The notes beneath the pieces were generated by a model. That model saw only the letters and a program-made list of their open reading frames with translations. It had not been told where the DNA came from and did no database searches. The position numbers and the translations under genes were made by a program. Below, one piece after another: positions 3,017 to 19,738 of a stretch of DNA of 20,000 nt (its first letter is position 1; each line of letters opens with the position of its first letter). Source of the DNA: an uncultured virus (IMG/VR IMGVR_UViG_3300044845_000975) (lineage: Duplodnaviria; Heunggongvirae; Uroviricota; Caudoviricetes); the IMG/VR virus record IMGVR_UViG_3300044845_000975; one strand, written 5' to 3'.

Positions 3017-3592
3017 ATGACAACAGAACAAATCAAAGCAATGCAATTAAAAATCGGCGTAACTCCAGACGGATTTTGGGGGCCAAAATCAATCGCTGCA
3101 TGTCAAAAATACCTTCGATCATTAATGCCAAAAGTTAATCCTTGGCCCAAGAGCGATACAGCTTCAATGTGCCGCTTTTACGGTAATCCTGGCGATGAAA
3201 AAAATCTTGTGACTGTGGATTTCCCATTCACCACTTTTTACGAAGGCAAGAAAATCACAAAATTTCGTTGCCACAAGAAAGTCGCAGATTCTCTTGTTCG
3301 AATCTTAAAAAATATCGGAGAAAAATACGGCAAAAACCGTGAAATCATGGAGGAAGCTGAAGATTTTGGCGGCGTTTATAATTTCCGCAATAAGCGGGGA
3401 GGTTCCAGCTACAGCGTTCACGCATGGGGCGCAGCGATTGATCTTGATGCTGATGACAATACTTTTCGCGACTCTTGGCCCATGAAAGCAGACATGCCTC
3501 TTGAAATCATGGAAGAATTCTCAAAAGAAGGTTGGCTATCTGCTGGTGCTTTTTGGAATTACGACGCAATGCACTTCCAGGCAACGAGATAA
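3017..3592 (+). CDS. M15-family metallopeptidase (probable endolysin) with short N-terminal peptidoglycan-binding-like segment
   Basis: GGVYNFR, SVHAWGAAIDL (SxHxxGxAxD Zn motif), DAMHFQ; N-terminal QLKIGVTPDGFWGPKS. Confidence 0.85.
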   Translation: MTTEQIKAMQLKIGVTPDGFWGPKSIAACQKYLRSLMPKVNPWPKSDTASMCRFYGNPGDEKNLVTVDFPFTTFYEGKKITKFRCHKKVADSLVRILKNIGEKYGKNREIMEEAEDFGGVYNFRNKRGGSSYSVHAWGAAIDLDADDNTFRDSWPMKADMPLEIMEEFSKEGWLSAGAFWNYDAMHFQATR

Positions 3593-3640
3593 ATTTAAAA
3601 AACTCTTGACAACAAACCAAACTTGCGCCATGTTTTTGCA

Positions 3641-3841
3641 ATGAACGAAGAAATTGCAATGAAATTAATTCCTCCAGCCCAACGCCTTTATAATATTGTA
3701 ATGGATGAGTTAGATGAGCGATGTGAAATATATGAAAAAAACTTCTTTTCCGATGAAGATAAGTATCATATTCTACGCTATCTAACAAACATGTTGGAAA
3801 CAGAAGAAGCTCAACTCTATAAAAAACTAAATGAAAATTAA
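3641..3841 (+). CDS. Hypothetical protein
   Basis: ATG 3641 follows TTGACA at 3606; acidic 66 aa; overlaps next start. Confidence 0.6.
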   Translation: MNEEIAMKLIPPAQRLYNIVMDELDERCEIYEKNFFSDEDKYHILRYLTNMLETEEAQLYKKLNEN

Positions 3842-8389: not shown

Positions 8390-8779
8390 ATGAAAGAAAC
8401 AATCGCTCAGTTCTTAAAGATCAAAGACTTTCCATTTACCATTAAAAATGAAAATGGAAATATAATCTATTACGAGGGTTCGAATGGATATTGGGAAAAA
8501 AGAGAATTTGATCTAAATGGAAATCGAATCTATTACGAGGGTTCAAATGGAGCTTGGGTCAAAAGAGAATTTGATCTAAATGGAAATCGAATCTATTTTG
8601 AAAATTCAAAAGGAGTTTGGTATAAAAGAGAATACGATTCAGATGGAAATGTAATATATTGGGAAGATTCAAATGGACTTGTTAATGATAATCGTCCTAA
8701 GCCAGTTGTCGAAATGACTCTTCAACAAGTTGCAGACAAGCTAGGAGTGGATGTAAAGAGCATCAGGATTAAAGAATAA
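8390..8779 (+). CDS. Protein with 21-aa beta-hairpin repeats (4 units)
   Basis: Repeats of NGN.IYYE.SNG.W.KREFD; C-terminal EMTLQQVADKLG. Confidence 0.85.
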   Translation: MKETIAQFLKIKDFPFTIKNENGNIIYYEGSNGYWEKREFDLNGNRIYYEGSNGAWVKREFDLNGNRIYFENSKGVWYKREYDSDGNVIYWEDSNGLVNDNRPKPVVEMTLQQVADKLGVDVKSIRIKE

Positions 8780-8782
8780 CAC

Positions 8783-8810
8783 TTGACTACATTAGGAAAG
8801 TCGATATAAT
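8783..8810 (+). promoter_or_regulatory. Promoter for a leaderless transcript
   Basis: TTGACT-N16-TATAAT, 6 nt before ATG 8817. Confidence 0.8.
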
Positions 8811-8816
8811 AATATT

Positions 8817-9143
8817 ATGAAACCAACCATCGCTCAATTTTTAAACATCAAAGACTTTCCATTCACCATCAAAGACAAGGATGGTATTCAAATCTATTAT
8901 GAATGCTCAGATGGATATTGGATTAAGCGCGAATACATTTCAAATGGAAAAGAAATCTATTGTGAAAATTCGCATGGATATTGGACTAAAAGAGAATTTG
9001 ATCTAAATAAAAACATGATCTATTTTGAAGATTCAAATGGAACTATTTACGATAACCGTCCTAAACCAGTTGTCGAAATGACTCTCCAAGAGGTTGCAGA
9101 CAAGCTTGGAATGGATGTAAAGAGCATTCGCATTAAAGAATAA
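8817..9143 (+). CDS. Paralog of 8390-8779 (3 repeat units)
   Basis: Near-identical N- and C-termini; exactly 21 aa shorter. Confidence 0.85.
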   Translation: MKPTIAQFLNIKDFPFTIKDKDGIQIYYECSDGYWIKREYISNGKEIYCENSHGYWTKREFDLNKNMIYFEDSNGTIYDNRPKPVVEMTLQEVADKLGMDVKSIRIKE

Positions 9144-9164: not shown

Positions 9165-9569
9165 ATGAATATCTACAATCTACTTGAAACACTGGACGAG
9201 TCTCGCATGGGAGGCTTTTATGATGTAGAAAATCTCGGCTATGAATTTGGTCTTAGTGGAGGCATTTGCTATGGCATGAGCATTGAAGATGACTTCAAAG
9301 AGTGTGAACACCGTGATGTAACTTGGATATGCACAGACACTTTAGTTGGCATTTTCTTTTTATTCCTGTATGATGAGTTTGTCGGTGTGCGCATTCAAAC
9401 TGAACGCAAGAGTGATAGCCATTTTTATTGGAAAGACCAAACCACATACAACAGAGTCAAAGAATGGTTCTGGAATGAATTTCAAAAACAAAATGAAACA
9501 CTTAAACCTTCTTTTGTTGATTTTACACAAGACCTATCCGATTATAACAAACAATCAAGACAACAATGA
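9165..9569 (+). CDS. Hypothetical phage protein
   Basis: 134 aa; WICTDTLVG motif; TATAGT 6 nt before ATG. Confidence 0.72.
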   Translation: MNIYNLLETLDESRMGGFYDVENLGYEFGLSGGICYGMSIEDDFKECEHRDVTWICTDTLVGIFFLFLYDEFVGVRIQTERKSDSHFYWKDQTTYNRVKEWFWNEFQKQNETLKPSFVDFTQDLSDYNKQSRQQ

Positions 9570-9614
9570 AACTTGCCTCCATCGAAATTATCTCTGAAAT
9601 TAAACCCCATCCTA

Positions 9615-9863
9615 ATGCTGACAAAATTGCCGCCAACACATGAAATAGAAGCTGAATTAGAAATGTGGAGGGATGGTAATATCATGCATGAAAACCACAG
9701 AGATCAGTTGGAAAAACTCGAACACGAACGAAACAAAATGCGTAATGCTTTAGAAAGCATCGAAGACCGCTTTGTTGATGGCGAAAATACTTATGACGAT
9801 TGGTTATTCATGGGGACGACTGCACGAACAGTACTATACGAACTTAGAAATCACTTAAGATAA
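9615..9863 (+). CDS. Hypothetical protein
   Basis: Helical ORF; start uncertain (TTG 9573 or ATG 9615). Confidence 0.55.
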   Translation: MLTKLPPTHEIEAELEMWRDGNIMHENHRDQLEKLEHERNKMRNALESIEDRFVDGENTYDDWLFMGTTARTVLYELRNHLR

Positions 9864-9875
9864 TATAAACGATTT

Positions 9876-10343
9876 ATGACAACATCACAAACAAACAACG
9901 GCGGCTACGTTCACCCAACTCCAATGGTTGTCACACCTACAGGCGAGTTGATGCCAACCACTTGCTACGGTTCCTTTGGAGGTATGTCCCTTCGCGACTG
10001 GTTCGCAGGTCAAGCTATTGGTCACTTAGCTGCATACTCAATGCAAGACGGCTGGGCAAGGAGTGGCCCAGAATGGAGAGACGGAGCGGCGAGTGAGGCT
10101 TATAAATTCGCAGACGCAATGATCGAAGCAAGGGAGGAAATAAACGCAACCCTTTTTGATGAGGTAAAAAAACTGCAAGACATTAAACGCAAACATGAGG
10201 AGAACGAGCTTCGCATGGCTCATGAAATTGACCAACTGCGTGCTGCGTTACTAGCAATGCACGAATTCTACCACTATAGTGAGTATAGTATTAGCGGATC
10301 ACTACTCAAGCAAGTGGAAGCTGCACTACAAATCGTTTCTTAA
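9876..10343 (+). CDS. Conserved phage protein with GM(S/T)LRDWFA motif and C-terminal coiled coil
   Basis: GGMSLRDWFAGQA..AYKFADAMIEAR. Confidence 0.75.
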   Translation: MTTSQTNNGGYVHPTPMVVTPTGELMPTTCYGSFGGMSLRDWFAGQAIGHLAAYSMQDGWARSGPEWRDGAASEAYKFADAMIEAREEINATLFDEVKKLQDIKRKHEENELRMAHEIDQLRAALLAMHEFYHYSEYSISGSLLKQVEAALQIVS

Positions 10344-11817: not shown

Positions 11818-12570
11818 ATGAAACATTCTCAGCCAAATACAACAACTCAACCAAAGCGGTGCTCAACATACTTTTGCGGAAATGATGCGGTTTATACTCG
11901 CGGCGATCCTTACACGAAAAAATGCCAAACATGTTATGACAAGCGATTCGACAAGTCATCTCCAGCTTGGAGGCTAATAAATAATGAAGAGCAAAGCTCC
12001 AAATATGCAAATTTACAAACGACTAGCTTGCAAATAAAGCCTCAAGTAGTTTGGCTCTATGGTCTTTCGGGCAGCGGCAAAACAACACTCTCGCGAGCAG
12101 TTGCCGAGAAATTAAAAGCATTAAATATTCCTTGCTTAATCTTGGATGGTGATGAGCTAAGACAGGGAATCAGTAAAGACTTGGATTTTACCTTGCTTGA
12201 TCGCTACAAAAATGTTCAACGAGCAGCAGAAATTGCGCGTTTAGCTTGCAGCCAAGGGTTAGTAGTATTGGTGGCCATGATTTCGCCAATGAATATTCAC
12301 CGCCTTGAGGCGCAAAGAATAGTTTCGCCGCTACCATTCACAGAAATCTTTCTTGATTGCTCTCTTGAGAAAGCTATAGAGCGTGACGTTAAAGGTTTAT
12401 ATGCACGGGCAAAAGCAGGAGAAATACCCCTTTTTACAGGATTAGATTCTCGCTTTGTTCCTCCAAGCTGTAATAAAAATACAATAAATACAGACTCAAC
12501 AACAATCCACGGCAGCATCCAAAAAGTTTTAAACATAATGAGCTTGACAAAAGCCCAAGACAGTGTATAA
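11818..12570 (+). CDS. cysC: Adenylylsulfate (APS) kinase with N-terminal Cys-rich extension
   Basis: VVWLYGLSGSGKTT P-loop, LDGDELR, DLDF..DR..N, ISP, RDVKGLY..A..GEI..FTGLDS. Confidence 0.92.
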   Translation: MKHSQPNTTTQPKRCSTYFCGNDAVYTRGDPYTKKCQTCYDKRFDKSSPAWRLINNEEQSSKYANLQTTSLQIKPQVVWLYGLSGSGKTTLSRAVAEKLKALNIPCLILDGDELRQGISKDLDFTLLDRYKNVQRAAEIARLACSQGLVVLVAMISPMNIHRLEAQRIVSPLPFTEIFLDCSLEKAIERDVKGLYARAKAGEIPLFTGLDSRFVPPSCNKNTINTDSTTIHGSIQKVLNIMSLTKAQDSV

Positions 12571-13166: not shown

Positions 13167-13194
13167 TTGACACTGATTAAATAATCAGTATATT
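13167..13194 (+). promoter_or_regulatory. Promoter with palindromic spacer
   Basis: TTGACA-CTGATTAAATAATCAG-TATATT, 7 nt before ATG 13202. Confidence 0.8.
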
Positions 13195-13201
13195 CTTGGC
13201 C

Positions 13202-13435
13202 ATGAAGCAAACACACCCAAGAACAAATCTGTATCGCTTAAAAAGCAACCCAACTACAATCGTTATGCGGCTTGGTGATCATCAGCAAAAAGTGGTTTGG
13301 ACTGATACTATGGCCAAGTATGGCGTAAATGACGCTTGGATCATCGGCAGATTTATTCCTGATAATGCCGTCAAACTCACAAAAGAAGAGTCGCGAGAAA
13401 TAAAAAACAAAATAAAAGCATTTCTAAAAAACTAA
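13202..13435 (+). CDS. Hypothetical protein
   Basis: 77 aa from ATG 13202; own promoter. Confidence 0.7.
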   Translation: MKQTHPRTNLYRLKSNPTTIVMRLGDHQQKVVWTDTMAKYGVNDAWIIGRFIPDNAVKLTKEESREIKNKIKAFLKN

Positions 13436-13436
13436 T

Positions 13437-13464
13437 TTGACGCCGATTAAATAATCAGTATATT
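13437..13464 (+). promoter_or_regulatory. Repeated promoter, copy 2
   Basis: TTGACG-CCGATTAAATAATCAG-TATATT, 7 nt before ATG 13472. Confidence 0.8.
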
Positions 13465-13471
13465 ATCCGCC

Positions 13472-13660
13472 ATGAATAAAGAACTTAAAGAACTTAACGA
13501 ACAACACCGATTATTTGGTCTTTTTGTTTTGCGCGTATTAGAGCGCGAAGCAGAATGGAGCGCAGACATTGTGGATGAAATCTCTGATGCTGCAATGGAT
13601 CTTTGTCTTGCATACACAGACAATGAAGGAAAATTCAAAGCCATCCTTGACAACAAATAA
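13472..13660 (+). CDS. Small acidic hypothetical protein
   Basis: 62 aa; own promoter. Confidence 0.72.
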   Translation: MNKELKELNEQHRLFGLFVLRVLEREAEWSADIVDEISDAAMDLCLAYTDNEGKFKAILDNK

Positions 13661-13674
13661 ATAATCAGTATATT
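13647..13674 (+). promoter_or_regulatory. Repeated promoter, copy 3
   Basis: TTGACA-ACAAATAAATAATCAG-TATATT, 7 nt before ATG 13682. Confidence 0.8.
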
Positions 13675-13681
13675 CTCTCCC

Positions 13682-13852
13682 ATGAACACACTATTTGAAC
13701 TCATCCCCCTCTTCAACGAATACTCTCACGAATGGGAGGTTCGCGAAACTGACGAAAACGATAATACGCTGGAAGTCTATGGCTTCGCCACAGAAGAAGA
13801 AGCAGAAAAGTTTGTTGATGCATGGATTCGTCGCGGAGAACTTTCGGCATAA
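13682..13852 (+). CDS. Small highly acidic protein (56 aa, not in ORF track)
   Basis: MNTLFELIPLFNEYSHEWEVRETDENDNTLEVYGFATEEEAEKFVDAWIRRGELSA; own promoter; paralog at 15503-15661. Confidence 0.85.
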   Translation: MNTLFELIPLFNEYSHEWEVRETDENDNTLEVYGFATEEEAEKFVDAWIRRGELSA

Positions 13853-15192: not shown

Positions 15193-15268
15193 GCGCTCGT
15201 AGCTTAATGGACAAAGCACCGTTTTTCTAAATCGGTGATTACAGGTTCGAGTCCTGTCGAGCGTGCCA
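15193..15268 (+). tRNA. tRNA-Arg(TCT)
   Basis: GCGCTCG/CGAGCGT acceptor, A20 in D-loop, loop TTTCTAA, ACAGG-TTCGAGT-CCTGT, CCA. Confidence 0.9.
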
Positions 15269-15347
15269 AATCAAAAAATGCCAAATAAGAAAGCGCCAAA
15301 TAACAAATAACAAAAAGGCAAATAACAAATAAGAAAACGCCAAATAG
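15265..15347 (+). repeat. Degenerate tandem (GC)CAAAT(AA) repeats
   Basis: About seven CAAAT units separated by A-rich spacers after tRNA-Arg. Confidence 0.7.
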
Positions 15348-15408
15348 TAAACACGATTTCTCTTAATAAGAGATAAGCAAAAAACTCCTAGTCTGTAGGT
15401 GAGAGTAT

Positions 15409-15455
15409 TAGGGATTATACCTACCCAGGGCCGCCTGCTATAGGTATTTTACCTA
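15409..15455. repeat. 47-bp palindromic element, copy 1
   Basis: TAGGgattataCCTA-cccagggccgcctgcta-TAGGtattttaCCTA. Confidence 0.9.
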
Positions 15456-15468
15456 GGTAGAGGGCATG

Positions 15469-15493
15469 AAAAAGCGCGGTTTCCCGCGCTCTT
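15469..15493 (-). terminator. Rho-independent terminator
   Basis: Minus strand: AGCGCGG-GAAA-CCGCGCT-TTTT. Confidence 0.85.
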
Positions 15494-15502
15494 GTTATTT
15501 AT

Positions 15503-15661
15503 TTAATGCCTTTCAATCCACTTGTCAACAAAGTTTTCCGCTTCTTCTTCCGTGTCGAAAGAATAAACTTCTAGCGCATTATCGTTTTCATCAGTTTCGC
15601 GGACATCCCATTTCAGAGTCTCGTCGTTAAATTCAGGGCAGAGGTCAAGCAGGATTTCCAT
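15503..15661 (-). CDS. Small highly acidic protein (52 aa, not in ORF track)
   Basis: MEILLDLCPEFNDETLKWDVRETDENDNALEVYSFDTEEEAENFVDKWIERH; 33/52 identical to 13682-13852. Confidence 0.85.
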   Translation of the reverse strand: MEILLDLCPEFNDETLKWDVRETDENDNALEVYSFDTEEEAENFVDKWIERH

Positions 15662-15665
15662 AGTG

Positions 15666-15971
15666 TTATTTAAGATACGCCATTCCGTAAGGGCCGCAAC
15701 CAGAAAGCGCGTCCTGATTAAAAATATTTCCGCGAGCGTGCATGGCTGGCGCTTTCCAGCTTGCTGCTTTCAGCAAGTCTCCATTGCTCAAGTCAATGAA
15801 ACCATAAGCACTAGTATTAGAACCATCTTTTTTAATGATTCGCGCAAAGCGTTTTCCCATAGAGATTTCTACTTTAGGCGCTGGCAATGTTGGGAATGTT
15901 TTGTTGTGATGCTTCTCAAGCATATCTTGAAGAGAGGCACAAAATGTTTCGATTTGTTTGGTGATGTCCAT
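15666..15971 (-). CDS. Conserved small phage protein (KAASWKAPA family)
   Basis: SAYGFID..NGDLLKAASWKAPAMHARGNI; promoter TTGATT-N16-TATCTT 5 nt before ATG 15971. Confidence 0.8.
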   Translation of the reverse strand: MDITKQIETFCASLQDMLEKHHNKTFPTLPAPKVEISMGKRFARIIKKDGSNTSAYGFIDLSNGDLLKAASWKAPAMHARGNIFNQDALSGCGPYGMAYLK

Positions 15972-16030
15972 GGGATAAGATAGCAGAAAGTGAGAATGAA
16001 TCAACTCTTTTTTATCTATTTTTATTTGCT

Positions 16031-16077
16031 TAGGAGGTTTACCTAACCAAGGCGGCCCTGGGTAGGTATTTTACCTA
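16031..16077. repeat. 47-bp palindromic element, copy 2
   Basis: TAGGaggtttaCCTA-accaaggcggccctggg-TAGGtattttaCCTA. Confidence 0.95.
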
Positions 16078-16092
16078 GGGACAAGACATAAG

Positions 16093-16114
16093 AAAAGGGG
16101 CGGTTTCCCGCCCC
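16093..16114 (-). terminator. Rho-independent terminator
   Basis: Minus strand: GGGGCGG-GAAA-CCGCCCC-TTTT. Confidence 0.85.
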
Positions 16115-16128
16115 CGTAGGGATTTTGT

Positions 16129-16899
16129 TTAAGCTTCCATCATTAGCTCACTTTTGTCGATTTCCGTTTGAATCACTGAGTTGTGCCCAGCGCGAGCATC
16201 AAAGATGCTCTGCATGGTCATCGTTCGGGCGGGCAGCTTGCTAAGGTCGCCACCTTTGAGGCATTCAGTAACGCCATTGTAAAGGCTCCATAGAGTGTGC
16301 CCGTTGAATTCGGGATGATTAGGCGTGCGAAACTGCTGCATGATGGGGTAAACTTCGCGGGCGGGGATTGCCTTAGCGTCTGCCAGTGACATGATGAGGC
16401 CCGCCGCTTCATCTTCAACAAGTTCGATTGTCTTATAGTTATCAATGCGGTTAGTCATGTCCGAGAAGTGAGAGACACAACGGCCAACAGCTTCCGACAG
16501 CACCCGCGCAATGTCGCGCAAGATGTTTGTCGTGTGCTTGCGGGCAAGCTTGATGTCAGAAGAGAAGCAAAGATTTTCACACACAAGCATTCGATTTCCG
16601 ATGCAAATGCTGGCAGCAAAGCTCTTGTCGTGCGCGTTGCGCAGGCCAAGCACTAGTTCACGGTCGGTGGCATTGACATCTTTCCCGACGATTGAGAAGC
16701 CGCCAAAATAGCGTTGGCCCATGCGGGCGAGCGCGTGTTCCTCTTCTTTGATTGAAAAGCCAGCGCGGGCGATTGCTTCGCGCATCTGGTCAACAAGAAG
16801 AGCATGGCCGATGGGCTGGAAGCTTTCCGTGGCGGCAGGGGTAGCGACGGTCAAGAGTTGTTCAGCGGATACTTTGTTTTTTGCGATGAGGAGTGACAT
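16129..16899 (-). CDS. DUF932-family protein
   Basis: LRNAHDKS..IGNRMLVCENLCF..RKHT and TLWSLYNGVTE; promoter TTGACT-N16-TATCTT upstream. Confidence 0.8.
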   Translation of the reverse strand: MSLLIAKNKVSAEQLLTVATPAATESFQPIGHALLVDQMREAIARAGFSIKEEEHALARMGQRYFGGFSIVGKDVNATDRELVLGLRNAHDKSFAASICIGNRMLVCENLCFSSDIKLARKHTTNILRDIARVLSEAVGRCVSHFSDMTNRIDNYKTIELVEDEAAGLIMSLADAKAIPAREVYPIMQQFRTPNHPEFNGHTLWSLYNGVTECLKGGDLSKLPARTMTMQSIFDARAGHNSVIQTEIDKSELMMEA

Positions 16900-17008
16900 G
16901 ATTTTTTTGTTTTCTATTTGGTTCGTTGGTTTCTTTAACGTGCATAAGATAACAGAAAGGAAACAAAAGTCAACAGTGAACAGCGTTTTTTCTGCATTTT
17001 TATTTGCT

Positions 17009-17055
17009 TAGGTGTTTTACCTATCCAGGGCGGCCCTGGGTAGGTATTTTCCCTA
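17009..17055. repeat. 47-bp palindromic element, copy 3
   Basis: TAGGtgttttaCCTA-tccagggcggccctggg-TAGGtattttcCCTA. Confidence 0.95.
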
Positions 17056-17068
17056 GGGCTAACTTAAG

Positions 17069-17096
17069 AAAAAGAGGGCGGATCACTCCGCCCCCC
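17069..17096 (-). terminator. Rho-independent terminator
   Basis: Minus strand: GGGCGGA-GTGA-TCCGCCC-TCTTTTT. Confidence 0.8.
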
Positions 17097-17163
17097 TAGG
17101 TGATTTAGCTAATTCGTCTGAGCGCGGCGATTACAGCCACTAAGAAGATGACTAGTATTTCCA

Positions 17164-17796
17164 TTAGTGCTTAGGGTAAAAGACTACGGGTTGATTCTTA
17201 TCCCAGCAAGCGCGGCAAGGGCCGCACACTCCGCCTTGCTTGTAGGCGGGGCAGGTAACTTTCTCAGGGTTACTAGTAACGCCCGACATAGTAACGCCCG
17301 CACGTTCAGCCGCGCCCGTAGGCAATGGCCCATCCATCATATAGGCAGAAAGCCTAACTGTCAAATTCTCAGGAAAGCTGCCATGCTTAAGAACATAGGC
17401 ATTAACCGTAGCATATTCCCTAGTTGGAATCCAGTGGCGCACGTCAGAAGTTTTCTTACATACGGCAACGATATTCTCTAGATGTTCGAGGGATTGAATG
17501 TCTCCCGAATCATGCCAGCGGAAAACATTAATTCCCGATTGCATGATTTGAAAAGCCATCGCTTCAACCCACAGGGGATGAGAAAGACTTTCAAGACGAC
17601 GTTGCAAAGCACGCTTCACATTGCCAAACACATAACGCCCCTTTAGAGCGTAGCATTTAGAGCAGATGGAGCCAGCAACGGCACGAAGCTTACTGCCGAC
17701 AAGGCAAGCCTGCGCGGGGATGGAATAGGCAAACCCTGGCATTTTAGATGGCTTAGACAAGCCGCCAGTGATTTCTTTAGCAAGTAGTGGAGTCAT
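17164..17796 (-). CDS. GP88-like Cys-rich (putative Fe-S) phage protein
   Basis: LSKPSKMPG..C..GS.CSKCYALKG.Y, FRWHDSGD, HWIPTRE, NLTVRLS, CPA..CGPCRACW. Confidence 0.8.
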   Translation of the reverse strand: MTPLLAKEITGGLSKPSKMPGFAYSIPAQACLVGSKLRAVAGSICSKCYALKGRYVFGNVKRALQRRLESLSHPLWVEAMAFQIMQSGINVFRWHDSGDIQSLEHLENIVAVCKKTSDVRHWIPTREYATVNAYVLKHGSFPENLTVRLSAYMMDGPLPTGAAERAGVTMSGVTSNPEKVTCPAYKQGGVCGPCRACWDKNQPVVFYPKH

Positions 17797-17814
17797 GGTT
17801 TACAGGTTAGCAGA

Positions 17815-18054
17815 TTAATCTTCAAAGTCAATACCCATGGAACGCAATTCGCGCCCCACGTTAGCGAGTGAAACAAGATGTTCTTTTGAATCCTCGCCCT
17901 CGTCTTCACCATAAGCAAAGTCAAAAGCAGAAAACACCGTGTCGGCGTCTAGTTTGAGCGCATCAAAAGCGGGTGCTAGTGCTTCACGGTTATTATTCAT
18001 CATCCAATCAACTAGGTTAACTAGGACATCAATGGCTTGTGTTTGTTTTTTCAT
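17815..18054 (-). CDS. Acidic hypothetical protein
   Basis: 79 aa; promoter TTGCGC-N16-TAATAT upstream. Confidence 0.7.
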   Translation of the reverse strand: MKKQTQAIDVLVNLVDWMMNNNREALAPAFDALKLDADTVFSAFDFAYGEDEGEDSKEHLVSLANVGRELRSMGIDFED

Positions 18055-18220
18055 AGGCGAGTAGATATTAACACAGGAGAAAAGAAGCGCAACTCTTTTT
18101 GTGCATTTTTTAATCTTTTTTTATTCTCAGGACTTGGCACGGCTCTTGCTAGGGGAAAGCGTGTCAAATGATTTATTTATTTATTTTTTCGCTTGACAAG
18201 GGAGGCTTAGGGATTTCGCC

Positions 18221-18267
18221 TAGGAGTTTTACCTACCCAGGGCCGCCTTGGGTAGGTATCCTCCCTA
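18221..18267. repeat. 47-bp palindromic element, copy 4
   Basis: TAGGagttttaCCTA-cccagggccgccttggg-TAGGtatcctcCCTA; extra TAGG-N7-CCTA box at 18208-18222. Confidence 0.95.
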
Positions 18268-18356
18268 GTCCCCCCACCTAGGGTAAGCCGCTGCTTTTCA
18301 GCTTTGGTCGAGGCATGGAGCCTCTTGTCCCCTAGGCGAGAGAAAATCAGGAAAGT

Positions 18357-18527
18357 TTAGAGCAAGTCAAAAATGTAATCAGGCTCTAGCCCAAATTCTT
18401 CAAGAAGAATTTCTTCAGGGTCTTCACCGTCATGGACGCGAGCGCGAGCTTCTTTCAATGCTCTACGCGCTTCTTCAACGGTATAATTGTCACGGCGGAT
18501 AAGGATTTTTTCAACGGTGGTCATCAT
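18357..18527 (-). CDS. Small phage protein with GLEPDY motif (56 aa, not in ORF track)
   Basis: MMTTVEKILIRRDNYTVEEARRALKEARARVHDGEDPEEILLEEFGLEPDYIFDLL; promoter TTGCCT-N17-TATCTT 7 nt upstream. Confidence 0.8.
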   Translation of the reverse strand: MMTTVEKILIRRDNYTVEEARRALKEARARVHDGEDPEEILLEEFGLEPDYIFDLL

Positions 18528-18548
18528 GGCTTATAAGATAACAGATTT

Positions 18549-18689
18549 TTATTCTTCAGGCAAGTCTTTTTTGCTGTTTTTTCGCGAATAATCTTTTGCG
18601 CTCTTATGTTTCTGTGGCGGCGGTGGGAGGTCTTTGCGAATTTTCTTTTTTAATTCGCGGTCATGTAGTGTGCCGATATTGATTTTCAT
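18549..18689 (-). CDS. Small basic protein (46 aa, not in ORF track)
   Basis: MKINIGTLHDRELKKKIRKDLPPPPQKHKSAKDYSRKNSKKDLPEE; ATGA overlap with upstream gene. Confidence 0.6.
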   Translation of the reverse strand: MKINIGTLHDRELKKKIRKDLPPPPQKHKSAKDYSRKNSKKDLPEE

Positions 18690-18877
18690 TGTTTTTCGCG
18701 GGAATAGATTTTTTCGATGTAGTCCCTAGCCTCTGGCACAAAAACAATTAAGTTTTCAAGTAAGCCTTTGAAGTAGGCGCGGTCATAAATCATTTGCACT
18801 TCATGCGTCATGGCTGGACGATCAATGCTTGAGAGTTTAATCAAGAGATTAGCAGCGGTTTCGAATGTGTGGTTCAT
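18686..18877 (-). CDS. Hypothetical protein
   Basis: 63 aa; TACAAT 6 nt before ATG. Confidence 0.7.
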   Translation of the reverse strand: MNHTFETAANLLIKLSSIDRPAMTHEVQMIYDRAYFKGLLENLIVFVPEARDYIEKIYSREKQ

Positions 18878-18899
18878 AGTATTATTGTATCGAGTTTAC

Positions 18900-19046
18900 T
18901 TACTTGGTGTTCAAGATTGTCGCTTCTCTCCTATACCATACAGAGCGATAAGAAACTTCCTTAGCCATTGCTTCATTAGCATAAACGCCGATGATCTCAC
19001 AATCACGTTCATCATATACTACCCAAACTGTTTGTTGTTCTTTCAT
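18900..19046 (-). CDS. Small hypothetical protein (48 aa, not in ORF track)
   Basis: MKEQQTVWVVYDERDCEIIGVYANEAMAKEVSYRSVWYRREATILNTK; TTGCAG-N16-TAAAAT 6 nt before ATG. Confidence 0.7.
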   Translation of the reverse strand: MKEQQTVWVVYDERDCEIIGVYANEAMAKEVSYRSVWYRREATILNTK

Positions 19047-19067
19047 GCTATTATTTTATCGAGTTTT

Positions 19068-19274
19068 CTACCATCTGCAATCATTATAACCTTGTTCGTA
19101 AAAGTATTTTTTTAATTCGCGCCAGAAATCGCCATCGCTTTCTGTTGAATCCCACCAGAAAGCATCGCGCCTATCTTTACTTTCGATAATTGTTTTATCT
19201 GTTTCTTCACAATACTTAACGGTAAAATCGTAAGCTGCTGCGGCTTGAATGAATGCTGGATTGATTTCTTTCAC
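19068..19274 (-). CDS. Hypothetical protein
   Basis: 68 aa, GTG start; TTGCAC-N16-TAAAAT 6 nt upstream. Confidence 0.72.
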   Translation of the reverse strand: MKEINPAFIQAAAAYDFTVKYCEETDKTIIESKDRRDAFWWDSTESDGDFWRELKKYFYEQGYNDCRW

Positions 19275-19401
19275 GCCTATATTTTAACACTTTTTTTTCT
19301 GTGTGCAAGTATAAAATAGCAAATTCGAAACGCTTTAATAGTAAATAGTGTGTTTTAGGGTTTTTTCTTAGGGAAAAGTAAGAATTCTACCTAAGAGAGC
19401 C

Positions 19402-19448
19402 TAGGAGTTTTACCTATCCAGGGCCGCCCTGGGTAGGTATCTTCCCTA
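19402..19448. repeat. 47-bp palindromic element, copy 5
   Basis: TAGGagttttaCCTA-tccagggccgccctggg-TAGGtatcttcCCTA. Confidence 0.95.
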
Positions 19449-19504
19449 GGGGGATGGAGTAGGGAGGAACACGCACCAGAAAAACCTCCCTACCCCCTTT
19501 CCGC

Positions 19505-19738
19505 CTACAACCTAACGAATAGGCTAGAAATTTTTTCTGAAATTGTTTTGACTTTTTTCTTGATTATTTGGTTGCTAGCAATTTTGATTTGTTTTTGAGG
19601 ATACGGGCCTTTTAATTTTAAGAGTCTCAGATTCAGGGGAGTGATTTCGTTCACTGGCTTGGAGAAACTTTTGCCAGTGTGCAAGAGATATTCCCAAGCG
19701 GCGTTTGCTTGTGTCACGGATGTTTCGAGGCGATGCAT
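19505..19738 (-). CDS. Hypothetical basic protein
   Basis: 77 aa ORF with A-rich leader after the tRNA-like RNA; no recognisable motif. Confidence 0.4.
   Translation of the reverse strand: MHRLETSVTQANAAWEYLLHTGKSFSKPVNEITPLNLRLLKLKGPYPQKQIKIASNQIIKKKVKTISEKISSLFVRL

Follow-up and report, generated by a model that had tools for sequence, protein, structure and literature searches.

A 47-bp compound palindrome at the transcription-unit boundaries of a variable gene array in an uncultured tailed phage

In this study, we analysed a gene array at positions 15409 to 19448 of a 20,000-nucleotide stretch of DNA, referred to here as the window, from the uncultured virus IMGVR_UViG_3300044845_000975 (Caudoviricetes). 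The array consists of four short gene cassettes and five co-oriented copies of a 47-bp compound palindrome, an element that in related phages likewise marks the boundaries between transcription units. Each copy is composed of TAGG-N5-TACCTA, 17 GC-rich bases and TAGGTA-N5-CCTA, and its inner 29 bases form a near-perfect palindrome. All positions below are those of the window unless a relative is named, and the copies are read on the minus strand, as are the genes of the array. Copy 1 (15409–15455) is the terminal copy: it lies behind the last gene of the array, no cassette comes after it, and its centre is degenerate, a variant that is kept in the relatives G1, L020 and G2. Copies 2 (16031–16077) and 3 (17009–17055; DNA fold −10.7 kcal/mol, z −3.4) share a longer similar stretch (96 nt, 81%). 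The end of copy 4 (18221–18267) is overlapped by an extra TAGG-N7-CCTA unit at 18208–18222, and 8 nt downstream of copy 5 (19402–19448), in the direction of the genes, there is a further TAGG-N7-CTTA unit. A 29-nt core pattern allowing up to three mismatches matched copies 2 to 5 on both strands (eight matches) and had zero matches across 200 shuffles; copy 1 was missed because of its degenerate centre, although both of its TAGG-N7-CCTA halves are still there. The window contains TAGG-N7-CCTA 12 times, where 0.07 would be expected, and always within 15409–19450; the five elements account for ten of these units, and of the other two one adjoins copy 4 (18208) and one is intragenic (17342). CCTAGG is found nine times against 1.55 expected, every time in the array. 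The initial annotation of this DNA had described five elements of this geometry at these positions, 0.6–1.2 kb apart. The five-copy array is confirmed from the sequence and is far beyond chance, with measured copy-to-copy distances of 622, 978, 1212 and 1181 bp.

The open reading frames (ORFs) in all four intervals between the elements lie on the minus strand without exception. Cassette 1 (15503–15971) encodes a DUF7717 protein (15666–15971) and a 52-aa ORF (15503–15661), cassette 2 (16129–16899) a DUF932 protein of 256 aa, and cassette 3 (17164–18054) an acidic 79-aa ORF (17815–18054) followed by a GP88-family protein (17164–17796). Cassette 4 (18357–19274) holds five small ORFs of 68, 48, 63, 46 and 56 aa to which no function was assigned. 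Beyond copy 5, the minus-strand gene at 19505–19738 ends the next cassette upstream; the relative G1, which is 95% identical to the window over 15499–19060 and has nine copies of the element, carries an array that extends beyond the window end. Eight small ORFs of the window cargo were without a significant family match, and 46 of 51 cargo representatives had no Pfam family match. The G+C content rises to 0.46–0.50 at 14–18 kb of the window from about 0.35 elsewhere. The small gene of cassette 1 (15503–15661) has an inverted paralogue on the plus strand at 13682–13852 (147 nt, 74% complementary), and a weak contig joint hints at a population variant without the cassette 1 copy of this gene.

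Pattern scans found the element in nine viral contigs and at 14 metagenome loci on 13 contigs, all from lake water. With the window included, 95 copies, 70 of them distinct, were obtained from 23 sequences. The alignment used below holds 69 distinct copies; L025 was dropped for an unreliable strand call (its two copies are those of window copies 4 and 5), and L012 was left out as part of L013's contig. The copies were collected with patterns that fix the arms, and scans of whole records, which fixed only 12 bases, gave nine copies in G001, eight in G002, four in G003, ten in G004, one in G005, three in G006, seven in G007 and six each in G008 and G009, with 0 matches in the reversed-pattern control. 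Each record's copies are confined to one stretch of 5–9 kb, which amounts to a single array per phage with at most ten copies. The sole copy of the 91.6-kb record G005 is at base 110, within the first 150 bases, and all six copies of the 51-kb record G008 are in its last 5 kb. Searching with a profile (E ≤ 10) brought up one extra diverged copy, inside an array, and no copy elsewhere in the window or in G005. The relative G2, which is syntenic with the window and about 70–75% identical to it, has nine copies. No match to the 125-nt module was found at E ≤ 1 in 50,697 GenBank phage records, and the sequence that the 7.9-kb region shares with GenBank phages is limited to tRNA genes. In 185,579 bacterial and archaeal species genomes, a 20-base pattern matched once, on a contig of a metagenome-assembled genome; this match has an AT-rich centre and was taken as chance, and the idea that the element originated from repetitive extragenic palindromic (REP) sequences of the host was therefore dropped. 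Avoidance of CTAG or CCTAGG was also considered as the cause of the restriction to one locus and was not supported (CTAG, 152 against 158 expected; CCTAGG, 0 against 2.9). Literature searches gave no description of the 47-bp element.

In its full form, seen at copies 2 and 3, the module in which the element lies runs in the direction of the genes from the stop codon through a terminator, a gap of about 16 nt, the 47-mer and an A/T-rich stretch to a sigma-70-type promoter. Elsewhere the promoter is preceded by short tandem repeats and by a third unit of TAGG-N7-CCTA. The intrinsic terminators of cassettes 1 (15472–15491), 2 (16096–16115) and 3 (17072–17097), all on the minus strand, end 16, 18 and 16 nt ahead of copies 1, 2 and 3, respectively; such a hairpin with a T run adjoins these three copies and not copy 4. 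Sigma-70-like promoters, also on the minus strand, serve cassette 1 (15977–16004, 26 nt past copy 2), cassette 2 (16946–16973, 35 nt past copy 3), cassette 3 (18065–18092, 128 nt past copy 4) and cassette 4 (19281–19308, 93 nt past copy 5). This bears out two statements of the initial annotation, namely that each interval is a self-contained minus-strand unit with its own promoter and that three of the four intervals end in a terminator abutting the next repeat.

Context counts were made on 69 distinct contexts with full flanks, after 8 of 77 contexts lacking them had been dropped. A canonical terminator, that is, a hairpin with a T run, is present in 21 of the 69 and always ends 15–18 nt before the 47-mer; in the remaining 48, only the hairpin of the 47-mer itself or other hairpins lie upstream of the promoter. 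A promoter of the form TTGnnn-N16-18-TAnnnT follows within 260 nt downstream in 59 contexts, 14 of which have it at 25–27 nt, behind an A-rich stretch, and a lone third TAGG-N7-CCTA unit is located 7–20 nt downstream in 24 of the 69 contexts. One element stands at every internal unit boundary, and the last unit ends in one too, while none precedes the first unit. This arrangement fits a mark of boundaries or 3' ends better than a promoter operator. On the sense strand, AA comes directly after the TAGGTA of the promoter-side arm in 60 of 69 copies. With regard to their spacers, full symmetry is seen in 31 copies, a purine-rich spacer on the 5' side in 27 and an inverted arrangement in 4, and a T-rich 3' spacer on the sense strand occurs in only 4. 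The co-orientation and T-rich plus-strand spacers that the initial annotation had pointed out hold in the window; across the relatives, co-orientation is a strong tendency with exceptions.

Three observations on the promoter regions may be added here. The start codon of cassette 1 (ATG, 15971) lies 5 nt past the −10 box and that of cassette 4 (GTG, 19274) 6 nt past it, and because of these short distances both mRNAs are probably leaderless. The same holds more widely for early promoters (13167–13202, 13437–13472 and 13647–13682, besides those of cassettes 1 and 4 at 15971–16004 and 19274–19308), where the start codon is found 5–7 nt past the −10 box with no Shine–Dalgarno sequence; many early mRNAs of this phage are thus probably leaderless, which may hint at the kind of host. 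The 165-nt spacer past copy 4 (18060–18220) is conserved in G2, L015 and L024. Besides two TTGACA-like boxes it includes a conserved GC-rich stretch, and it could accommodate a small RNA or a second promoter. Finally, 22-bp tandem repeats follow tRNA-Arg, and in the relatives iteron-like units akin to them separate many 47-mers from the promoter that follows (window positions 15261–15351 and 19314–19345).

The element could be recognized as a sequence in duplex DNA or could act through the structure of a single strand. In the alignment the arms are invariant or nearly so, variation is found in the centre (82% GC) and in the spacers (80% AT), and conserved blocks recur every 10–11 bp or so. The two TAGG-N7-CCTA units have their centres 32 bp apart, about three helical turns, and flank the CCAGG...CCTGG centre, in which the CCAGG and CCTGG blocks each come in two registers that combine almost freely and shift independently. 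Paired cells make up 85.5% of the alignment, against 85.2 ± 0.6% when the letters of the 3' side are shuffled (136 of 500 shuffles were as high), and the covariation score of 0.087 compares with 0.081 in shuffles (90 of 500 as high). Columns 16 and 32 are unpaired in 52 of the 69 copies, columns 17 and 31 in 32, and columns 19 and 29 in 22. In the outer arms, TAAG on the left and CTTA on the right never occur together, with 0 double changes at pair 3–45. The palindromy is real, yet it is fully explained by the conservation of the single columns. RNA folding gave the stronger structure to the sense strand in 34 copies and to the antisense strand in 36, which is no strand bias, and G–T and A–C mismatches were equally common, at 11 and 11 and at 6 and 6. 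As covariation does not exceed what the columns give and the RNA fold has no preferred strand, the element most likely acts as double-stranded DNA.

A different possibility, that the 29-nt hairpin works as an RNA or single-stranded DNA signal, be it a terminator, a stabilizer of RNA 3' ends, an RNase III-type site or an antisense terminator, we consider unlikely. The predicted hairpin is indeed stable, with a mean of about −20 kcal/mol for the 47-mer as RNA and −7.4 to −12.5 kcal/mol (z −1.0 to −4.2) as DNA, and in the 48 contexts lacking a canonical terminator upstream the element could be the sole 3' signal. In the window, the hairpin is followed on the plus, that is, antisense strand by TTTT, and a simple scan calls copy 3 a terminator; however, this pattern is not conserved in the relatives. 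On the sense strand a T run after the hairpin is the exception, which argues against an intrinsic terminator there, and the 31 symmetric copies have no T run on either strand, so the combination of a GC hairpin and a sense-strand T run that defines an intrinsic terminator is not what the 47-mer presents. In contexts where the terminator is canonical, the element lies behind it and before the promoter and would be mostly untranscribed. Of the features expected of a structured RNA, neither compensatory changes nor a tolerance of G–U on one strand was seen, G–U-type mismatches being as frequent as A–C-type ones on the sense strand, and no known family was recognized: Rfam returned nothing for 15300–19700 at E ≤ 1, and only tRNAs at the gathering score. 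We also rejected the idea, prompted by the −35/−10-like spacing of TACCTA-N17-TAGGTA, that a phage sigma factor uses the 47-mer as its promoter. A relative with two sigma-like genes lacks the motif in its other 91 kb, where TAGGTA is present 8 times against 4.9 expected.

The strings of cassettes vary among the relatives in both content and order, the order differing in G7, G4 and L024. The f1...f7 cassette is ahead of f6-f2 in G1, G2, G4, G8, G9, L013 and L015 and behind it in G7, and the lysozyme gene ends a multi-gene cassette near the array start in G1, G3, G6 and G7 but makes up a cassette by itself at a later position in L024. Nucleotide comparison of trimmed arrays gave 24 rows of differences, which collapsed to 12 distinct indel events. 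Two of these are whole cassettes with both junctions inside 47-mers, namely the lysozyme cassette in L024 (2937/2962–3707/3718) and a four-ORF cassette in G7 (1422–2461), and another two have one junction at most 17 nt from an element. The other eight, which are single-gene or small, lie away from the elements; among them are the endonuclease-VII-like ORF in G1 and a 365-bp stretch of the window (18915–19280) that is missing in L025. The 47-mers themselves are mosaics, in which the left half tracks the upstream gene and the right half the downstream gene. A CTTA end, for example, goes with the lysozyme gene in five contexts and is replaced in L024. The initial annotation had proposed to test whether gene content and order change exactly at the repeats, and this holds for the two whole-cassette events and fails for the eight indels located elsewhere.

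Contigs assembled from four lake-water runs contain one robust skipping joint (18890>19288, side 90), by which two small genes are lost and which lies away from the 47-mers. Several other skipping joints in these contigs are weak, with sides of fewer than 30 letters at 90% likeness, and the back-joints 17058>16095 and 17061>16097, with 14 other letters between their sides, are indistinguishable from paralogous boundaries in relatives. At 19449 there are loose contig ends that correspond to the flank of another cassette of G1; they were not counted, the extent of the matching side not being given. Taken as a set, the indels fit general homologous recombination between repeated modules better than the action of a dedicated cassette recombinase. 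The modules are direct repeats, and for this reason homologous recombination would occasionally delete, insert or reorder whole cassettes; the UvsX-like recombinase of the phage should suffice for exchange between such repeats. Two further observations concern endonucleases. The close relative L026 has an HNH/NUMOD3 homing endonuclease that is not in the window and an endonuclease-VII-like ORF inside a cassette (3129–3785, 9348–9923), and L018 has an ORF of the same endonuclease-VII-like family in a different cassette.

The explanation that we favour, tentatively and at somewhat less than an even chance, is that the 47-mer is a putative protein-bound boundary or control site inside a module resembling the promoter-early stem-loop (PeSL) cassettes of T4-type phages. 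According to this explanation, it would form the conserved core of a repeated intergenic module that divides early transcription units in a hyperplastic, ORFan-rich locus. A dyad-symmetric, sequence-specific protein, derived from the phage or from its host, would bind both TAGG-N7-CCTA units on duplex DNA and, once bound, would control or insulate the adjacent transcription units, and the UvsX-like recombinase acting on the direct-repeat modules would account for occasional loss, gain and reordering of whole cassettes, by a mechanism that has been demonstrated for PeSL cassettes. The reading as an operator is supported indirectly by the dyad symmetry, the 10–11 bp spacing of the blocks, the solitary TAGG-N7-CCTA units and the absence of structural covariation. 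An array of protein-binding sites had been offered as an alternative in the initial annotation, and it fits the lack of covariation and of strand bias; that a protein binds is what we infer.

A number of findings weigh against this explanation. No helix-turn-helix or other DNA-binding family was recognized among the cargo representatives (51 searched with Pfam, 45 with PHROGs) or in the flanking genes. The invariance of the arms is partly built in by the arm-fixing patterns, a concern that is eased by the 12-base scans and the profile search. The −35 box follows the element at a distance of 25 to more than 130 nt, which is far for a simple repressor, and the last copy has no promoter after it and the first unit has no copy before it, which fits a boundary or 3'-end element better than an operator of the promoter. 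In addition, the centre is stabler than centre-shuffled controls in 62 of 70 copies, which leaves room for a hairpin or cruciform role, and the eight indels away from the elements likewise count on this side.

Early ORFan-rich regions of phage genomes hold genes for host takeover and counter-defence, and how these regions are organized and reshuffled is only partly understood. The array offers a clean natural case outside the T4-type phages, with one strictly conserved 47-bp signal at every unit boundary of one locus and with whole units that have moved at this signal. If a protein does bind the 47-mer, the element would be a compact and portable boundary or control site for tightly packed strong promoters, and it would provide a handle for locating early-gene islands in the genomes of uncultured phages.

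It is quite improbable, in our view, that the element is a selfish or neutral repeat, a linker resembling REP sequences or miniature inverted-repeat transposable elements (MITEs) that is kept alike by concerted evolution and has no effect other than to provide homology for recombination. Such an origin would agree with the short palindromic form, the TA ends and the frequent position within a longer similar stretch, as at copies 2 and 3. It would also agree with the register shifts by which the centres of orthologous copies differ, resembling conversion between copies, and with a module that, along with its small gene, separates two genes in G4, G8 and G9 and is missing between the same pair in G2 and L013, with the junction just after the terminator. 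However, the element is found at a single locus, always at unit boundaries and never dispersed; bacterial genomes lack it, apart from the one AT-centred match, and no transposase was recognized in about 130 kb of sequence. Furthermore, 20 arm positions are kept in phages whose genes are about 70% identical, whereas spacers, centre and flanks diverge, which argues for selection on the sequence.

Sites acting in cis in DNA entry, packaging or replication, such as a pause or anchor on the DNA that enters first, as has been proposed for the repeat-rich injection-stop region of phage T5, are an equally improbable account of the array. In its favour, the array is early, driven by host-type promoters, about 7 kb from the large terminase gene and divergent from the late structural operon, and a GP88-like gene like the one in the cargo is found at the genome ends of some cultured podophages. 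The T5 region is rich in repeats and palindromes (10.1101/866236), but its repeats lie in untranslated blocks and not between every transcription unit. The resemblance is a loose one. One element per transcription unit would be unexpected for an entry or origin signal, and all records analysed are classed as linear fragments.

The initial annotation had also raised the possibility of a phage cassette recombination system. The elements do bound cassettes that vary, and cassette recombination as an evolutionary effect is partly supported; a dedicated system is not supported. In an integron-like system, the 47-mers would be cut by a recombinase and cassettes would be excised as circles and re-inserted elsewhere. 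In geometry the element may be likened to a folded attC site, as it has two box pairs, a 5x5 spacer that is unpaired and a GC stem that varies. Like an attC array, the locus consists of co-oriented cassettes of 0.4–2.5 kb, and an imperfect palindrome whose two inverted box pairs enclose a variable centre closes each of them, also the last one, with none before the first; the cassette order varies among relatives; the two whole-cassette events with both junctions in elements and the mosaic 47-mers with halves that track different neighbours point the same way. However, the RYYYAAC left arm occurs in 0 of 69 copies and the GTTRRRY right arm in 7, by chance, so that no copy has both cores, as the initial annotation had already stated for GTTRRRY in the window. 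Whereas attC cassettes are promoterless and depend on a common promoter, those described here own their promoters and terminators; moreover, pairing has no strand asymmetry and most indels bypass the sites.

No IntI or other tyrosine recombinase was recognized in this array. The initial annotation had seen no recombinase in the window; none was recognized among the window ORFs, and the wider search gave the same result, with no tyrosine or serine recombinase, integrase, resolvase, transposase, HUH protein or protelomerase recognized in the window, G1, G2 and G005 (about 130 kb in all, including a 24-kb relative and the 91.6-kb G005; for G005, 88 of 103 ORFs with PHROGs and 54 with Pfam, to which 18 window ORFs were added) and no recombinase among the 51 (Pfam) and 45 (PHROGs) cargo representatives. 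F34, which lies beside the upstream end of the array in the position that an integron integrase would take and is divergent from it, was rejected as an integrase since it is tail-tube-like according to language-model look-alikes, a lead and not a proof. G005 is 67% complete by CheckV, and genes are therefore unseen. With these points together, we regard dedicated integron-like exchange as very unlikely. The same goes for a phage cassette platform with attC-like 47-mers and a recombinase of an unrecognized family, encoded by an ORFan or in the unseen third of the genome, which we hold to be highly doubtful, and it would be just as surprising if such a platform captured, excised and reordered self-expressed early cassettes for host takeover or anti-defence. 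If the element were a recombination site after all, it would represent a new viral gene-cassette system.

Returning to a protein-bound boundary site, the closest described system in our comparison appears to be that of the PeSL cassettes, which the array resembles in context and in evolutionary effect. A PeSL joins an early promoter to an AT-rich stretch and a stem-loop that serves as terminator and is repeated between ORFans, and PeSL copies exchange and form mini-circles, the involvement of a dedicated helper protein being left open (Arbiol et al. 2010, PMC2839356; Comeau et al. 2014, PMC4122927). The authors of the former speculated that the conserved stem-loop might be the target of a protein (PMC2839356). 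The array shares with PeSLs the repeated intergenic modules in which an AT-rich stretch leads to a strong sigma-70-like early promoter, with a canonical terminator stem-loop upstream in 21 of 69 contexts; in both, the modules flank small ORFan genes in a hyperplastic region and contain junctions of indels and replacements, and T4-type phages and the present phage both have an efficient recombination system. In contrast to PeSLs, the modules described here have an extra 47-bp palindrome with invariant arms between terminator and promoter, and this is their best-conserved part. They are restricted to one locus, whereas PeSLs are scattered over several regions, and they belong to a phage that is not of the T4 type, lacks a close relative in culture and carries a tape measure and J-like tail genes, and in which many genes are seemingly leaderless and lack a Shine–Dalgarno sequence. 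Mini-circles are a feature of PeSLs; the present array is known from assembled contigs alone.

Other repeat families show more distant likenesses. The stoperators of mycobacteriophages are many copies of one short intergenic site, mostly in one orientation with respect to transcription, which one regulator is known or believed to bind, blocking or tuning transcription through the units; they are short and asymmetric, are spread over the genomes of temperate phages and have a known repressor. The element described here has 47 bp and dyad symmetry, is confined to one locus and has a putative binding protein. REP sequences, REPINs and MITEs are short palindromic intergenic repeats, sometimes arranged as inverted doublets and often located by terminators, which are distributed genome-wide and are linked to RAYT proteins or transposases. 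The present family, on the other hand, is found in phages only, at one locus, and no transposase was recognized. The intergenic repeats of halovirus HF2 are reported to be AT-rich and to carry promoters (PMC8707807). Both are conserved intergenic repeat families tied to the starts of transcription units, and they differ in that the promoter is separate from the element here and the centre of the element has 82% GC.

The phage that carries the array was characterized mainly from G005, for which 88 of 103 ORFs were annotated with PHROGs (15 were not sent) and 54 further ORFs with Pfam. Its tail genes include a 2318-aa tape measure protein, a J-like central fibre and minor tail proteins. A large terminase is encoded too, and so are a primase, a DnaB-like helicase, a family-A-like DNA polymerase, the UvsX-like recombinase and an SSB. 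It also encodes a ribonucleotide reductase, a thymidylate synthase, PhoH, two sigma-like proteins and an ERCC4-type nuclease with a zinc finger. Since the large terminase is only 27–28% identical to its best cultured match (terminases of Bacillus siphophages), and judging by the tail genes, this lake phage is a large tailed phage of an uncultured lineage and not a T4-type myovirus. The array sits between the side with the ATPase and tRNA-Arg and a dCMP deaminase operon, which is divergent from the tail-tube-like gene, PhoH and, about 7 kb further on, the terminase. CCGG is absent from the 20-kb window and occurs 0 times in 91.4 kb of G005 against 58 expected, and GTAC is depleted in G005 (28 against 105 expected); this looks like the avoidance of restriction sites.

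In the window, the plus strand up to 15268 encodes an rIIB-like protein, an endolysin, three tRNAs, an adenylylsulphate (APS) kinase and a RuvB/clamp-loader-like ATPase, and is followed by the minus-strand block. A 37-nt repeat is found beside each of the three tRNA genes (12668, 12933, 13036, 15342). The APS kinase lies at 11818–12570, and a relative (L068, L069) has several sulfotransferase-like and glycosyltransferase genes; together, these genes may constitute a phage-borne sulfation pathway. At 1460–2377, a 305-aa protein combines PA14/GLEYA carbohydrate-binding domains with Pro/Thr-rich tandem repeats that follow them (2036–2089, 2324–2365). Two adjacent paralogous genes at 8390–9143, encoding proteins of 129 and 108 aa, form 263-nt repeats with 63–77% identity.

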